64,000 bases of DNA, taken from a virus. Location: positions 84,971-148,970 of IMG/VR virus record IMGVR_UViG_3300028392_000034. One strand, written 5' to 3'. The notes beneath the pieces are model-generated. The model searched no databases. It was not told the DNA's origin and worked only from the letters and a program-made list of their open reading frames with translations. Positions 46,786 through 52,001 of this stretch are shown here, piece after piece. Made by a program: the position numbers and the translations under genes. How positions within the stretch are numbered: position 1 is the first letter of the stretch; each line of letters starts with the position of its first letter.

Positions 46786-47481
46786 ATGAACAGTAAAGAA
46801 TTTGTTGCCAAGATCGTGGCAGACAATCAAGCATTATTCCAAGCTAGTCAACACAATGTGAAAGCATACTTTGACAGCAAGCCTGCTCAAGAAGAGTTGG
46901 TCGAGCACTTTGTTGGCCGCATGGTCAACGAGCGTATGAACATGGTTGAAATCAGCCAAGCTATTGCAACAATGCCTGCTGATGCAGATCCAGTTGAATT
47001 GCAGTTGTTGACACAACAAGCACACGACGAAGCTGTTCATTTCCGCATGGTCAAAGAAGTAATTGAACACATCACTGGTGCACCGGTTGATGTTGAAGCT
47101 GCTATCGCCAAAGAAGCTGCCAAACCCACTGCCAAAGGCGCTGGTTTGTTGGCCAAATACGGCGCAGAAAATGATCCAGTTGCCTTGGCAGCTTACCAGT
47201 TGGTAGCCGAAGGCCGTGCCGAAGCAGTGTGGGATCAAATGGCCGACTGCATCGAAGATCCATTTATCTCCAAGAGCTATGCTAAAATTGCTCGCGACGA
47301 AGGCTTCCACAGCAAGATCGGTGCTCGCAAGTTAGAGCAGTTGGTTACAGACGCAGACGTTGCTGCCAAAGTTGAAACTTTGGTTGCCGCCATGCGTAAA
47401 GACTTGTATGAAATTTCATGCAAGAACACTGTTGCCGCAGATGCTGGTAAAGCATTGGTAGCAGACGCATACGGTTGGTAA
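46786..47481 (+). CDS. Ferritin-like diiron-carboxylate protein
   Basis: E...DEAVH...E...DEGFH; strong RBS TAAGGAG. Confidence 0.85.
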   Translation: MNSKEFVAKIVADNQALFQASQHNVKAYFDSKPAQEELVEHFVGRMVNERMNMVEISQAIATMPADADPVELQLLTQQAHDEAVHFRMVKEVIEHITGAPVDVEAAIAKEAAKPTAKGAGLLAKYGAENDPVALAAYQLVAEGRAEAVWDQMADCIEDPFISKSYAKIARDEGFHSKIGARKLEQLVTDADVAAKVETLVAAMRKDLYEISCKNTVAADAGKALVADAYGW

Positions 47482-47482
47482 T

Positions 47483-48034
47483 TTGAATATAGGATTAACA
47501 CAACGAATCCTATATCATAACGGTCAAGCGTATGATGCCACCCAGCATGGATGGTATTCATACTTACAGGGTCATACGCTTGTTCCAGTAGCAAATAGAA
47601 CAGATCAAGATTTTGAAGCAGTAGCACAAGAATTAGATGTATTAATCATCACAGGTGGAGACGACACTGCTCTTCGCCGCACAGTAGAATTAAAGTTAGC
47701 AGGACAAATGGCCTTGCGTAAAAAACCAGTTGTTGGTGTTTGTCATGGTTGTTTTTTGTTAACTGATGTATTAGGTGGTCGAGTAGAAGAAGTAGCAGGA
47801 CATCATAATACCACGCACAACGTAAATTACTTTGGTGAGCTAATAGCGGTCAATAGCTATCATACTTTGGCAATTAAAAAATTGCATCGGTCTGGTACGG
47901 TATTAGCCACTGACGCCGAAGGCAATTGTGAAGCGTGGATTGATGGTCAAACAGCAGGAGTGGTCTGGCACCCGGAACGTATGAAAACGCCTTGGTTACC
48001 AGATGAAATTTTAAATTTAACTTTTAAGGAATAA
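47483..48034 (+). CDS. Class I glutamine amidotransferase / peptidase C26
   Basis: ITGG, GVCHG, VNSYH, WHPE. Confidence 0.9.
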   Translation: MNIGLTQRILYHNGQAYDATQHGWYSYLQGHTLVPVANRTDQDFEAVAQELDVLIITGGDDTALRRTVELKLAGQMALRKKPVVGVCHGCFLLTDVLGGRVEEVAGHHNTTHNVNYFGELIAVNSYHTLAIKKLHRSGTVLATDAEGNCEAWIDGQTAGVVWHPERMKTPWLPDEILNLTFKE

Positions 48035-48035
48035 A

Positions 48036-49028
48036 ATGAAACGATTATTTGCAGCATTGTTTATTACCATGGCCGGAATGGGCGCATGTTCGGTATCCCA
48101 TGCTTGGGAACCTACAAAAACAGTCACAGTTGTTGTGGGCAACACACCCGGTGCCGGAAACGAGATAGCATTCCGTAAACTGGCCGAAATTGTGCAGAAG
48201 AAAAATCCCAAGTTTGTTTATGTGGTGGAAAATCGCCCGGGTGCCGACAGTGCAGTGGCCAACAACCATTTCATACAACAACCTGCAGATGGCTATACCA
48301 TCAACTTGCCAAGCCATATGAGCAGCTATGTCACCAATGATATTTGGGAAGCAAAGATTAAAAAATATCAATGGGACAGTTTTGTTGATGTATTGACCAT
48401 GGGCAAGAGTCCGCTGGTATTGGTTGCCAGCCCAAAAAGCACAGTAGAAACACCAGTTGACTTTGTGCGTTATCTTGCTAAGTCTACTCGGCCTATTAAT
48501 ATTGCTGTAGGCGGCGGAGCACATAGAACAGCATACGAATATTTGATTAACAAAGCACATGGCAATCGTGATCTGATCAAGCCAATCAAATTCAACGGTC
48601 CATTGCCAGCAGTGACCAGCGTGGCACAGTACGATGGAAAAGTAGGCACAGAGTTTGGTATTATGCCTATTGCTGTGGCTAGGCCATTGGTCGAAGCCGG
48701 CAAAGTCAAAGCCATTGGATTTACTGGTACACGCACAATGCCACAGTATCCGGATGTGCCACTGTTGAACACTGTGGCACCGGGAATTAATGTATACGCA
48801 GCTTGGTCAATTGAATTGCCCCCCAACACAGACAAAGAAATTGTTGCATGGTATCAGAAAACATTCAGTGCCGCAATTCGCAGCAAGGAATATGCCGAAT
48901 GGCGTGAGAAAAACGTAGTATTCTATGAAGAGGCCGAACTTACTCCAGCAGGTTTGAAAAAACAAATGGAAAGTTTACGTGAAACATTCTTGCCAGTGCT
49001 ACAACGAATTGATTTGAGTAAAGAATGA
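48036..49028 (+). CDS. Bug/TctC tripartite tricarboxylate transporter substrate-binding protein
   Basis: Signal peptide; VVENRPGA, PADGYT, GKVKAIG, PDVP. Confidence 0.9.
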   Translation: MKRLFAALFITMAGMGACSVSHAWEPTKTVTVVVGNTPGAGNEIAFRKLAEIVQKKNPKFVYVVENRPGADSAVANNHFIQQPADGYTINLPSHMSSYVTNDIWEAKIKKYQWDSFVDVLTMGKSPLVLVASPKSTVETPVDFVRYLAKSTRPINIAVGGGAHRTAYEYLINKAHGNRDLIKPIKFNGPLPAVTSVAQYDGKVGTEFGIMPIAVARPLVEAGKVKAIGFTGTRTMPQYPDVPLLNTVAPGINVYAAWSIELPPNTDKEIVAWYQKTFSAAIRSKEYAEWREKNVVFYEEAELTPAGLKKQMESLRETFLPVLQRIDLSKE

Positions 49029-49645
49029 AGTATATTTTTTGTGCCGGTGCTCCAGGCAGTAAATGGTCGAGCTTGATTAAAAATATCTACTATAGTCCCA
49101 GTATAGATCGTACTGACTATACCGAAGATAGAACCTACTACCACGATGCTTCGGGCAAATTAGACCTGATGCATCTTGGAGTATACTTTGATCCTGGAAT
49201 GGAGTTTGGCGATTTCTTTGACAAGCTCAGTGACTATACAAAAGAACAATGTGAAGCAGAGTTTGATCGGCCTTTTTCAGGCGAAGGTACACGTATTATC
49301 AAAAGTCATGTGTTTGCACACCATGTAGACTTTATTAAATCTACGTGGCCCGACTGTCCTATTATTTTAGCCCTGCGTGACAACGATGCTTGTCTGGGCT
49401 GGTGGGTGCGTTGCGGACATTTTAATATTACCTATCCCAGCTACGATAAGTATTATAAGAATTTGCGTGAAATGAGTAAAATCATTGATTGGCAAAATCG
49501 AGACATAGGCCGGGCATGGGCTAATTATGATGGCCTTGTTGTTCGCAACAATCAAGAACTAGCAGAAATATTAGGTATTCCACAACCGCCAGAAGAATAT
49601 CAGCAAGACTATATGGCGTCTGACCTAGAGGTAAAAGTAATATGA
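49025..49645 (+). CDS. Sulfotransferase-like P-loop protein
   Basis: AGAPGSKWS 5'-PSB-like loop, IIKSH, IILALRD. Confidence 0.55.
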   Translation: MKYIFCAGAPGSKWSSLIKNIYYSPSIDRTDYTEDRTYYHDASGKLDLMHLGVYFDPGMEFGDFFDKLSDYTKEQCEAEFDRPFSGEGTRIIKSHVFAHHVDFIKSTWPDCPIILALRDNDACLGWWVRCGHFNITYPSYDKYYKNLREMSKIIDWQNRDIGRAWANYDGLVVRNNQELAEILGIPQPPEEYQQDYMASDLEVKVI

Positions 49646-50328
49646 AAAATCAAGCAGATTATGACAGCAGTTGGCAGTGGTGTGTAGACCATAGTCGTTA
49701 TCATTTCAATGATTCTCGCAAGGATCAACCAGGTGAGTGGTTCCAAGTGTTGGGCCGCTTTGTAGGCACATGGTCAGATGAAGTCGCTCAAGCACAGGGC
49801 AAACCTATAACTTGGGCCACACGTAAATTTTACGGCAACGATGACAACACAGTTAGCCCTATGCTGGCACAAGAAGAAAATGATTTACGCACAACAGGTG
49901 CACCAGTAGACCTTGAGTTAACCGATGCGGTATTTGATATCAGTGCATATCCTACGTTGACTAGAATAAGTGAATACTTTGGGCTGGAAGATCCCAAGAT
50001 ACGTATGCATTATCAACAACCTGGTCAAATGTTTAATCTGCACATAGACAAATTACAAGAACGCTGTCCCGATGATCCAGAACAGGTAGTGCGTATGACC
50101 GTAATGTTAGATGATTGGCGCCCTGGACAATTCTATCTATTTGGTACTCACACATATTCGCATTGGCAAGCCGGAGATGTTCACATATTCGACTGGGCCA
50201 ATGTTCCACATGCCACGGCCAATGCCAGTCGCTACATGCGTCCAACACTACAGGTCACAGGACTTAAAACAGAGAAAACTCGTCAGATGATGGCCGTAGC
50301 AGGACCGTTGGTCAAATATCTAGTATGA
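49642..50328 (+). CDS. 2OG-Fe(II) / Asp-Asn beta-hydroxylase-like oxygenase
   Basis: QQPGQ...LHID, W..GD...FD, PHATAN, RPTL. Confidence 0.75.
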   Translation: MKNQADYDSSWQWCVDHSRYHFNDSRKDQPGEWFQVLGRFVGTWSDEVAQAQGKPITWATRKFYGNDDNTVSPMLAQEENDLRTTGAPVDLELTDAVFDISAYPTLTRISEYFGLEDPKIRMHYQQPGQMFNLHIDKLQERCPDDPEQVVRMTVMLDDWRPGQFYLFGTHTYSHWQAGDVHIFDWANVPHATANASRYMRPTLQVTGLKTEKTRQMMAVAGPLVKYLV

Positions 50329-50954
50329 AAAAACAGTTGTTGATTATATCAGGTCCACAAGGATCTGGTAATCATGTCTGGAGTAAAATACTTGCCTTGC
50401 ATCCAGCAGTGTATGGGTGGAAAGAATTGAATCAAACCTATTGGATCGGGCATGATCAAGAACCATTTGCTGACTGTTGGAACAACACCGATCTATTGAA
50501 AAATTTCGATTGGAATCAAAGCGATTATTATGTGACCGGTGTAAGTTGTCCTTACATGAACAATGGTGAACGCACTGTGCCCAATTTAATCGGCTTTGCA
50601 GCACAGGCCATGGGCTGTGGCATCAATGTACGATTTGCTATCATCGGGCGAGATCGTAATATCTTGTCGTTTCAAGAAACTCGGTTGCGTGGTGAGCCCA
50701 CATACAATATAGCTGTAGAACAGTATCAACGATTGGCCACATGGAATCCTGTATATCTCAGCTACGAGTTACTGCAATTGTATTCTTGTGACTATTTGAG
50801 GCAACTAAGTATTCTATTAGAGTTTCCAATAGATTACAACAATGCTTACATTGCGGAAATACTCCAAGATGACACTAATCAAAAATACTTTCAACCGGTA
50901 GCACATCATCCAACAGATGATTTAGCAAGACACACTTCAAGGAAATGGCGATGA
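50325..50954 (+). CDS. Sulfotransferase-like P-loop protein
   Basis: SGPQGSGNH...LALHP, IIGRD, LSYE. Confidence 0.6.
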   Translation: MKKQLLIISGPQGSGNHVWSKILALHPAVYGWKELNQTYWIGHDQEPFADCWNNTDLLKNFDWNQSDYYVTGVSCPYMNNGERTVPNLIGFAAQAMGCGINVRFAIIGRDRNILSFQETRLRGEPTYNIAVEQYQRLATWNPVYLSYELLQLYSCDYLRQLSILLEFPIDYNNAYIAEILQDDTNQKYFQPVAHHPTDDLARHTSRKWR

Positions 50955-51790
50955 CCCAACGTATATTGATAATGGGATTACCGGGTTCGGGCAAAACAAC
51001 ATTGGCTGCAGAACTCAAACGCTATTTAGAACTGCACGGAACAGCAGATCTAAGCAATGCTGAAATGTTGCCCATCACCGGATTCCGACCACACGTCACT
51101 TGGTTCAACGCCGACGATATTCGTCGCAAATACAACGATTGGGACTTCAGCAATGACGGACGTATTCGTCAAAGTATACGCATGTTTCAGTTCAGTATCG
51201 AGTCCGGTGGCGATTATGTTATCTGTGACTTTGTTGCACCCTTGGTCGAACAGCGTAACAATTTCAAAGCCGACTGGACTATCTGGGTCGATACAATTCG
51301 TGAAGGCCGTTATGCAGATACCAATGCAGCCTTTGTTGAACCTGAAGTATATGACTTCCGTGTCACGGAACAAAATGCAGAAAAGTGGGCTGAATTTATT
51401 GGCCAGCACATTATAGACCAGCGTCGCCGACCTGTGTTTGATTGGAAACGAGAAACTGTGCAGATGTTGGGTCGCTGGCAACCATGGCATGATGGACACC
51501 GTGCCTTGTTTGAACGATTGATTGCCAAGACCGGCCAGGTAGTTATTCAAATACGTGACGTTCAAGGTTGGCAAGGGTCAAATCCATTTGAAGTAGAACA
51601 GGTTAAAAAGTTTATTCGGCGTGATCTAGATCCTATCTATCAAGGACAATACGAAATACAAGTAGTGCCTAATATTGTTCACATAGGTTGGGGACGAGGT
51701 GTAGGTTACACTGCCGGAGAGGAAACTTTTGATGAATCAGTCACTGACATCAGTGCTACAAAGATTCGTAAAGAGTTAGGATTAAAATAA
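50951..51790 (+). CDS. cysC: Adenylylsulfate kinase-like domain fused to an HxGH nucleotidyltransferase domain
   Basis: GLPGSGKTT, NADDIR, FVAP; then GRWQPWHDGH, ISATKIR. Confidence 0.8.
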   Translation: MTQRILIMGLPGSGKTTLAAELKRYLELHGTADLSNAEMLPITGFRPHVTWFNADDIRRKYNDWDFSNDGRIRQSIRMFQFSIESGGDYVICDFVAPLVEQRNNFKADWTIWVDTIREGRYADTNAAFVEPEVYDFRVTEQNAEKWAEFIGQHIIDQRRRPVFDWKRETVQMLGRWQPWHDGHRALFERLIAKTGQVVIQIRDVQGWQGSNPFEVEQVKKFIRRDLDPIYQGQYEIQVVPNIVHIGWGRGVGYTAGEETFDESVTDISATKIRKELGLK

Positions 51791-51794
51791 CATC

Positions 51795-52001
51795 ATGAAT
51801 GATACGCCAGTTCGTAGCCTTGCCAAGGCAGTTAGCTGGCGTATCACTGGCACTATAGATACTTTCCTTATCAGTTGGTTGATTACAGGACAGGCACTGC
51901 TAGCCAGTGGTATTGCCTTGACAGAAATCTTGACCAAAGTAGGGTTATTTTGGGCGCATGAAAGAGTGTGGAACAGGGTCAAATGGGGCAGGACCAACTA
52001 A
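51795..52001 (+). CDS. DUF2061 membrane protein
   Basis: RSLAKAVSWR...HERVW. Confidence 0.85.
   Translation: MNDTPVRSLAKAVSWRITGTIDTFLISWLITGQALLASGIALTEILTKVGLFWAHERVWNRVKWGRTN

Follow-up and report, generated by a model that had tools for sequence, protein, structure and literature searches.

A 279-residue phage protein joining an APS-kinase-like domain to a miniature nucleotidyltransferase is a candidate compact PAPS synthase

A 64,000-nucleotide stretch of viral DNA (the window; positions 84,971 to 148,970 of IMG/VR record IMGVR_UViG_3300028392_000034) encodes a protein in which an N-terminal kinase resembling CysC, the adenosine 5'-phosphosulfate (APS) kinase, is joined to a C-terminal nucleotidyltransferase (NT) of about 115 amino acids (aa), called mini-NT here. 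From sequence comparison and gene context we consider it reasonably likely that this 279-aa protein is a compact two-step sulfate-activating enzyme, which would convert ATP and sulfate to APS and then to 3'-phosphoadenosine 5'-phosphosulfate (PAPS). An earlier note made from the letters of the window had proposed a bifunctional enzyme of roughly 280 aa making APS and then PAPS. The proposed chemistry remains the best-supported reading, through fusions to CysC, a link between DUF2061 and CysN, and sulfotransferase neighbours, but the family assignment has to be given up, as the putative sulfurylase half is not of the Sat type. The two-domain makeup that the note described is real, with a CysC-like kinase above the PF01583 cut-off followed by an NT domain, and both motifs it quoted, GRWQPWHDGH and ISATKIR, were located (Table 1).

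In the proposed mechanism the C-terminal mini-NT would transfer AMP from ATP onto sulfate, giving APS and pyrophosphate, and the N-terminal kinase would then use a second ATP to phosphorylate the 3'-OH of APS, giving PAPS. With both activities in one protein, or encoded side by side, the unfavourable first reaction would be drawn towards its product. The PAPS would feed phage sulfotransferases (the ST1-like and probably the ST2-like protein encoded upstream) or those of the host, and the small DUF2061 membrane protein encoded just downstream would be a third partner. That the acceptor of mini-NT is sulfate, and the product PAPS, is what we infer from the evidence that follows.

Evidence bearing on the acceptor comes from marine bacteria, where a mini-NT homologue with 43% identity, collinear and carrying the same motifs, forms the N-terminus of NT-CysC proteins of ~310 aa, the C-terminus of which is a canonical full-length CysC (PF01583, E 6e-63). 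This architecture occurs in more than 120 protein clusters, mostly from marine samples, and was traced to a genome of the OCS116 cluster, an order represented by 25 genomes of 0.9-1.6 Mb. These are incomplete assemblies that come without completeness figures; NadD was found in 20 of the 25, fusion carriers included, so enough of each genome is covered for absences to be informative, and NAD synthesis in the carriers does not depend on mini-NT. Three genomes have the full NT-CysC fusion and one a partial copy. Sat (PF01747) was found in none of the 25, nor was CysD, searched for with a model that also detects PAPS-reductase relatives; the NT-CysC fusions are the sole APS kinases (PF01583) in the order, and the carriers have no real AprA. 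Sulfotransferases lie on the same contig, 8-16 kb from NT-CysC, in two of the three full cases, and stand beside NT-CysC in metagenome contigs. With a canonical APS kinase, no other source of APS and users of PAPS nearby, the simplest explanation is that the fused mini-NT makes APS.

Downstream of NT-CysC, three loci (L010:10182-18562, L012:5746-12974 and L014:9107-16311) share a conserved protein of 654-666 aa that has no family match; a Pfam search at E<=1 with a 659-aa representative returned nothing usable. After it comes a giant protein of the RTX type (HemolysinCabind; 1,660-2,048 aa), which may be a target of sulfation, and next in line in L012 and L013 is a sulfotransferase with tetratricopeptide repeats (TPR).

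The N-terminal half of the window protein is homologous to APS kinases. Its match to PF01583 (APS_kinase) is weak though above the cut-off of 21.1, with 26.3 bits when the full-length protein is searched and 28.5 bits when the domain is searched by itself, far below the 212 bits reached by the canonical CysC of the NT-CysC fusions. A profile built from 44 diverse full-length family members (alignment A1) met only APS kinases among its first 15 matches in the PDB (E 1e-15 to 1e-12), and Foldseek with the AlphaFold model likewise returned APS kinases in all of its top 15 places, APS-bound structures among them. An exhaustive VIA-align search placed APS kinases first, at Z 17.3, 17.2, 16.2 and 15.1, with gluconate kinase next at 13.9.

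The residues that hold APS are identified by a structure of Mycobacterium tuberculosis CysC with its substrate, in which Asp480 contacts the 2'-OH, Arg483 and Arg497 bind the phosphosulfate, Phe492 and Phe576 (the latter in FTGID) stack on the adenine, and the backbone of SFISP touches the phosphosulfate (PMC4373884). To compare this site, window-type kinase domains were aligned with canonical CysC domains; residue numbers throughout follow a 281-aa frame counted from the ATG at 50945. Asp480, Arg483, Phe492 and Arg497 correspond to D57, R60, F68 and R73, all four invariant, and Phe576 to Y123, a position that is Y or F across the family; SFISP reads DFVAP in the window protein. The set of catalytic Asp, two Arg and two aromatics is thus retained whole in window-type kinases. 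In the P-loop, G11, L12, G14, G16 and K17 are invariant across the window-type and canonical CysC domains alike.

The C-terminal domain belongs to the HxGH superfamily: both motifs are invariant, the fold is Rossmann-like, and structural matches reach Z ~10 over ~110 residues. In alignments A1 and A2 the G, R, Q, P and both H of GRWQPWHDGH are invariant, as are G250, R251 and G254 of the GWGRGVGY loop in A1. Within ISATKIR, R275 is invariant and I269 and S270 nearly so in A1, and in A2 the I, A, T and R of the motif do not vary and S hardly does. Taken as a single sequence, the C-terminal ~115 aa gave weak matches to Cytidylyltransferase-like models and to those of archaeal nicotinamide mononucleotide (NMN) adenylyltransferase (NMNAT); as a profile it found MJ0541 NMNAT (E 1.6e-11) and Francisella NadM (E 1.9e-10) in the PDB. 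Its nearest relatives are NadM-type NMN adenylyltransferases. By structure (VIA-align, residues 168-281) NMNAT and NadM, at Z 10.1 each, stand level with phosphopantetheine adenylyltransferase (PPAT), at 10.2.

The premise of a Sat-type sulfurylase did not survive these comparisons. PF01747 matches neither the whole protein nor the separate domain, Sat catalytic domains are absent from the PDB profile matches of both the fusion and mini-NT, and an hhalign comparison of mini-NT with five Sat catalytic domains gave 19.5% probability, with the ISxTxxR end alone aligning. Nor is there room for the PUA-like N-terminal domain of Sat. Real Sat domains carry QTRNPxHxxH, VGRDHAG and ISGTxxR in that order, which resembles the order of motifs in mini-NT. 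The idea that YGRDVGY, the family consensus of the GWGRGVGY loop, is the GRD loop of Sat was considered and rejected, since the same hhalign comparison leaves the GRD motifs out of register.

An NMNAT activity had been named in the earlier note as the alternative, and as far as homology goes the suggestion holds, NadM-type enzymes being the closest homologues; as a function it is disfavoured by context. The protein might be NadR-like, combining a kinase of the ribosylnicotinamide type with an NMNAT, or might act as an NMNAT and then phosphorylate the adenosine ribose of NAD, and we regard such an NAD-related role as very unlikely. NCBIfam matches agree with the PDB profile in pointing to NadM-type NMNATs, NAD salvage genes are known from phages, and a NADAR (COG3236) gene adjoins the homologue in Sano/Salvo-like phages. 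Yet mini-NT scores 23.3 bits on TIGR01527 against a cut-off of 181.2, and two parts of MJ0541 are without a counterpart in it: residues ~76-109, where mini-NT is ~25 residues short, and the C-terminal helices 134-168. We take the former segment to hold the nicotinamide-binding residues of NMNAT, and its loss would fit a much smaller acceptor. The kinase half, moreover, is much nearer to APS kinase than to human Nrk1 (Z 17 versus 9.9) or to NRK/NadR kinases in general (E 1e-15 versus 0.004), the NT-CysC bacteria already have NadD, and an NAD-related role would leave the canonical CysC fusion, the DUF2061-CysN link and the sulfotransferase neighbours unexplained.

It could also be supposed that the kinase is a true APS kinase working on host APS, and that mini-NT is a regulatory nucleotide-binding domain or the enzyme of an unrelated step. 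Fungal Sat, with its C-terminal kinase-like domain, is a precedent for such an arrangement, and most phage hosts have a CysDN or Sat of their own. A non-catalytic fused domain also has a precedent in the AS-like domain of Entamoeba APSK, according to a preprint (bioRxiv 10.64898/2026.04.02.716029). We nevertheless think this quite unlikely. A purely regulatory NT is hard to square with the invariant catalytic motifs, given that HxGH, ISxTxxR and several Arg are kept across the family; no APS source besides mini-NT was found in the 25 marine genomes, and NT always accompanies the kinase, fused or adjacent.

This pairing persists through several permutations of the genes. In the window a kinase-NT fusion is followed by a DUF2061 gene; at locus L347 a kinase-DUF2061 fusion is followed by a stand-alone mini-NT of 137 aa; at L349 kinase and NT are separate, overlapping genes; and in marine bacteria the order is reversed, as NT-CysC. 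In all architectures seen, mini-NT is paired with an APS-kinase-type domain, in the same protein or an adjacent gene. We surveyed the neighbours of the target gene within 4 kb in 236 phage loci from three lineages, and DUF2061 was present in 14 of them (in 13 loci no more than 1 kb from the target). DUF2061 is also fused to window-type kinase domains: about 20 of its 39 longer relatives are fusions to an APS-kinase domain, and one is a CysN-DUF2061 protein in a cysH-like/cysD/cysN operon.

That operon (L348:632-3950) consists of a PAPS-reductase-like gene, a cysD-like gene and cysN-DUF2061, in which DUF2061 occupies the place that CysC has in CysNC proteins. In two further proteins, P0232 and P0246, mini-NT is joined to internal pieces of chorismate synthase (profile positions 93-240) or of the C-terminal domain of 3-dehydroquinate synthase; these look like chimeric gene calls or misassemblies, but could reflect a neighbourhood of aro genes.

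The commonest recognisable neighbours of the target gene in the 236 phage loci are sulfotransferases. A bona fide sulfotransferase (PF13469, 60 bits; PF00685, 38 bits) is present in 25 loci, an ST1-like gene in 26, an ST2-like gene in 25 and a gene for their 228-aa partner in 29; some sulfotransferase or sulfotransferase-like gene is present in 58 loci. Matches to the bona fide enzyme decay with distance, from 32 at 0-4 kb to 1 at 4-6 kb, and never occur alongside the ST1/partner/ST2 set, as if the two were alternatives. For the ST1-like protein of the window, modelled at a mean predicted local distance difference test (pLDDT) of 92.7, the top 8 VIA-align matches are all PAPS-dependent sulfotransferases (TPST1 at Z 11.5 over 168 aa), the first other protein being a kinase at 8.5; Foldseek with the same model found nothing at E<=0.001, its weak matches being mostly sulfotransferases, and hhalign against the bona fide enzyme gave no support (0.2-0.6% probability). 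The ST2-like protein aligns by hhalign with a cluster of bona fide phage sulfotransferases (72.7% probability, E 3e-5, ~107 columns), and its Atlas look-alikes include sulfotransferase clusters, which we treat as a lead only. Neither ST1 nor ST2 matched a sulfotransferase among PDB sequences, as profile or as single sequence, BLASTP finds the two unrelated to each other, and ST2 and the 228-aa partner have no usable Pfam match even at E<=1. No CysH was found in the 149-kb phage record, so PAPS is not evidently supplied to a phage reductase. At L347 the kinase-DUF2061 and mini-NT genes are embedded in a gene cluster for glycan decoration, together with glycosyltransferases, methyltransferases, a Sulfotransfer_2 protein and a carbamoyltransferase.

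A carbamoyltransferase of the NodU/CmcH type (PF02543 and PF16861) lies near the target in 20 loci, for example L159:5486-6952 and L347:5250-7004, the latter directly upstream of the kinase-DUF2061 gene.

The nature of the neighbours also bears on the possibility that both domains make a PAPS-like donor without sulfate, the NT joining a nucleotide to some other small anion and the kinase adding a 3'-phosphate; the product might be a nucleoside diphosphoramidate 3'-phosphate, as with Campylobacter Cj1415-Cj1418, or the step from dephospho-CoA to CoA might be meant. Within the window there is a class-I glutamine amidotransferase (GATase)/Peptidase_C26 gene at 47483-48034, a related kinase domain is fused to a PF00483 nucleotidyltransferase (P0269), PPAT shares first place among the structural matches of the NT, and the kinase departs from canonical CysC in its DGDN motif and its shorter lid. 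All of this would suit such a donor, which we still judge unlikely. Only 3 of 80 close loci have the GATase gene near the target, PF01326, typical of proteins like pyruvate phosphate dikinase (PPDK), is absent from the 148,970-bp record and from 32 records of related phages (of which 8 reach a completeness of at least 90%), and the phosphoenolpyruvate (PEP)-utiliser domain PF00391 is absent from the 148,970-bp record. The glutamine kinase Cj1418 we take to be PPDK-like. Sulfate is indicated, on the other hand, by the canonical CysC (212 bits on PF01583) to which mini-NT is fused, by the bona fide PAPS-type sulfotransferases and CysN-DUF2061, and by the retention of both adenine-stacking aromatics and both phosphosulfate Arg. 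A pathway of the O-methyl phosphoramidate (MeOPN) type was considered and rejected, no glutamine-kinase-type gene having been found in the 33 phage records.

The protein P0269 (L009:2133-3302) combines a window-type kinase with a different nucleotidyltransferase (PF00483, or weakly NTP_transf_3) and adjoins a CTP_transf_3 gene; it may be a donor enzyme like Cj1415/Cj1416 and not a sulfate enzyme.

Several observations weigh against sulfate activation by the window protein and its relatives, and we set them out together. The kinase scores 16 bits on TIGR00455, well short of the threshold of 138.7, and lacks a complete DGDN motif: the window protein reads NADD, with Asn for the first Asp in most of the family. 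In human PAPSS1, D87 and D89 belong to this motif and the D87A variant is inactive (PMC8528679). Compared with the lid of canonical CysC (RDPKGLYKKAR... type), that of the window-type kinases is ~19 residues shorter and, judging by the alignment, may be without the lid Arg and Lys. Not every kinase of this ancestry acts on APS: Cj1415, homologous to APS kinase, uses another substrate, and the pathway that it forms with a glutamine kinase, a GATase-like hydrolase and a nucleotidyltransferase leads to CDP-phosphoramidate 3'-phosphate (PMC11800397). For mini-NT, the only significant sequence relatives of known function are NMN adenylyltransferases, and a relationship to Sat is undetectable beyond the superfamily motifs. 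A recognisable sulfotransferase is within 4 kb in only about a quarter of the phage loci, and a PF13469-like gene is present in 3 of the 8 complete phage genomes that carry the family. In one lineage (L258-L337, e.g., L270:7043-8134 and L276:6760-7314) the target adjoins MetK (three domains), a phosphoribosyltransferase and a helicase, and 73 of 77 loci have no sulfotransferase; in the Sano/Salvo-like phages, whose hosts are Xylella, Stenotrophomonas and Xanthomonas, the homologue comes straight after the NADAR gene and overlaps it (L001:5565-6008, L002:5565-6008).

To our knowledge the recognised ATP sulfurylases are of two kinds only, Sat and CysDN. We hold it a little likelier to be right than wrong that mini-NT is a third, undescribed and by far the smallest class, descended from an NMNAT-like ancestor, that would make APS for marine bacteria lacking Sat and CysDN and for many large phages, and that with the trimmed kinase and DUF2061 would provide a viral PAPS supply for the sulfation of glycans or other targets. 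Our literature search found no publication on the kinase/mini-NT fusion or on any NadM-like sulfurylase. If mini-NT is a true sulfurylase, the annotation of sulfur metabolism in metagenomes would change, as genomes scored as incapable of activating sulfate might do so after all; there would be an explanation for the orphan APS kinases and sulfotransferases in streamlined marine bacteria; a sulfation cofactor supply of their own would be established for many large phages; and a very small PAPS-regenerating enzyme would become available for biocatalytic sulfation. Should the acceptor be something other than sulfate, the family would make a PAPS-like donor not known so far, which would be of interest likewise.

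The open reading frame (ORF) runs uninterrupted from 50945 to 51790 on the plus strand and encodes 281 aa from its first ATG. The true start is probably the second ATG, two codons downstream at 50951, because relatives are mostly 279 aa long, the start codon and the stop codon of the preceding ORF share the letters ATGA (50951-50954) and AAGGAA lies 6 nt ahead of the start. Over 7,900 proteins in one database score as relatives at E<=1e-3, and a second database yields 1,852 representatives, which marks this as a genuine gene and not a chance ORF. It matches PHROG 10255, "kinase", at E 9e-44, and the AlphaFold model of the fusion protein has a mean pLDDT of 91.8. The parent record is viral and 148,970 bp long at an estimated completeness of 43%, so its source is probably a jumbo phage.

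Table 1. Features of the kinase/mini-NT gene and its neighbours, in window coordinates
Feature	Coordinates	Strand	Basis or remark
ST1-like protein, sulfotransferase fold	49025..49645	+	Weak PF13469 (E 0.0017; 1.3e-4 per genome), model
228-aa protein of unknown function, partner of ST1/ST2	49642..50328	+	Co-occurs with ST1 in 22 loci, with ST2 in 21
ST2-like protein, candidate remote sulfotransferase	50325..50954	+	Translationally coupled to the target gene
Kinase/mini-NT fusion gene, stop codon included	50951..51790	+	ORF, ATGA overlap, AAGGAA, length of relatives
APS-kinase-like P-loop kinase domain, lid shortened	50951..51424	+	PF01583, PDB profile, Foldseek, VIA-align
P-loop GLPGSGKTT	50975..51001	+	Sequence
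NADDIR, counterpart of APS-kinase DGDNxR	51107..51124	+	Alignments; D57 and R60 kept, first Asp replaced by Asn
Mini-NT domain, ~115 aa, candidate sulfate adenylyltransferase	51437..51787	+	PDB profile, VIA-align, identity to NT-CysC fusions
GRWQPWHDGH, HxGH nucleotide-binding motif	51470..51499	+	Sequence
GWGRGVGY loop (family consensus YGRDVGY) with invariant Arg	51686..51709	+	Replaces ~25-residue NMNAT segment
ISATKIR, ISxTxxR motif of the HxGH superfamily	51749..51769	+	Sequence
DUF2061 small membrane protein	51795..52001	+	PF09834, E 9e-21

Some further genes near the target deserve mention. A separate 147-aa cytidylyltransferase-like protein (PF01467, 60 bits; similar to TagD and RfaE domain II) lies within 3 kb at L202:3459-3899 and in 28 other loci, and was never seen with the ST1/partner/ST2 set. 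Among the Sano/Salvo-like phages, Bhz60 has two genes upstream of the NADAR/homologue pair, one annotated as cysteine dioxygenase and one MazG-like. Inside the phage operon of the window, 48036-49028 encodes a periplasmic binding protein of the TctC/Bug family (PF03401, E 7e-18), which 7 of 80 related loci share, as does the 362-kb contig L005; no TctA or TctB was seen nearby. Further upstream, 46786-47481 encodes a 231-aa protein that only faintly resembles diiron enzymes (the small chain of ribonucleotide reductase at E 0.009, AurF at E 0.026) and that accompanies the GATase gene in 3 of 80 loci.

Among known systems, the window protein can be set beside the PAPS synthases and Sat-CysC proteins (PAPSS1/2, 1x6v; Aquifex, 2gks; Thiobacillus, 3cr8; M. 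tuberculosis CysN-CysC), which likewise join an APS kinase to an APS-making enzyme. Its kinase-first order is that of animal PAPSS, the kinases are homologous, and the predicted chemistry and product are alike. The differences are substantial: PAPS synthases have 550-630 aa and a sulfurylase of the Sat (PF01747) or CysDN type, whereas the second domain here is NadM-like and ~115 aa, and the kinase has a shorter lid and Asn in place of the first Asp of DGDN. With the NadM-type and archaeal NMNATs (TIGR01527; 1f9a, 1ej2, 2qjt, 2qjo) mini-NT shares GRxQPxHxGH, NPF and SxTxxR. Unlike them it has lost ~25 residues after the third strand, where the YGRDVGY loop stands, and the C-terminal helices, and in the architectures seen it is never fused to a Nudix domain.

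The Campylobacter MeOPN pathway (Cj1415 kinase, Cj1416 nucleotidyltransferase, Cj1417 and Cj1418) offers a similar logic, in that an APS-kinase homologue and a nucleotidyltransferase together make a 3'-phosphorylated nucleotide donor for surface glycans. Both a glutamine kinase and a GATase-like hydrolase are required there, and the glutamine kinase has no counterpart of its type in the 33 phage records. Chains annotated as phosphoglutamine cytidylyltransferase were not among the PDB matches of the NT profile, and Cj1416 presumably has a fold different from that of mini-NT. A parallel in gene content is found in rhizobia, where NodP and NodQ, an additional PAPS supply, are encoded beside the sulfotransferase NodH and the carbamoyltransferase NodU, which decorate an oligosaccharide. 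The gene set at L347 resembles this arrangement, with the difference that NodPQ are paralogues of CysDN/CysC and not mini-NT proteins.

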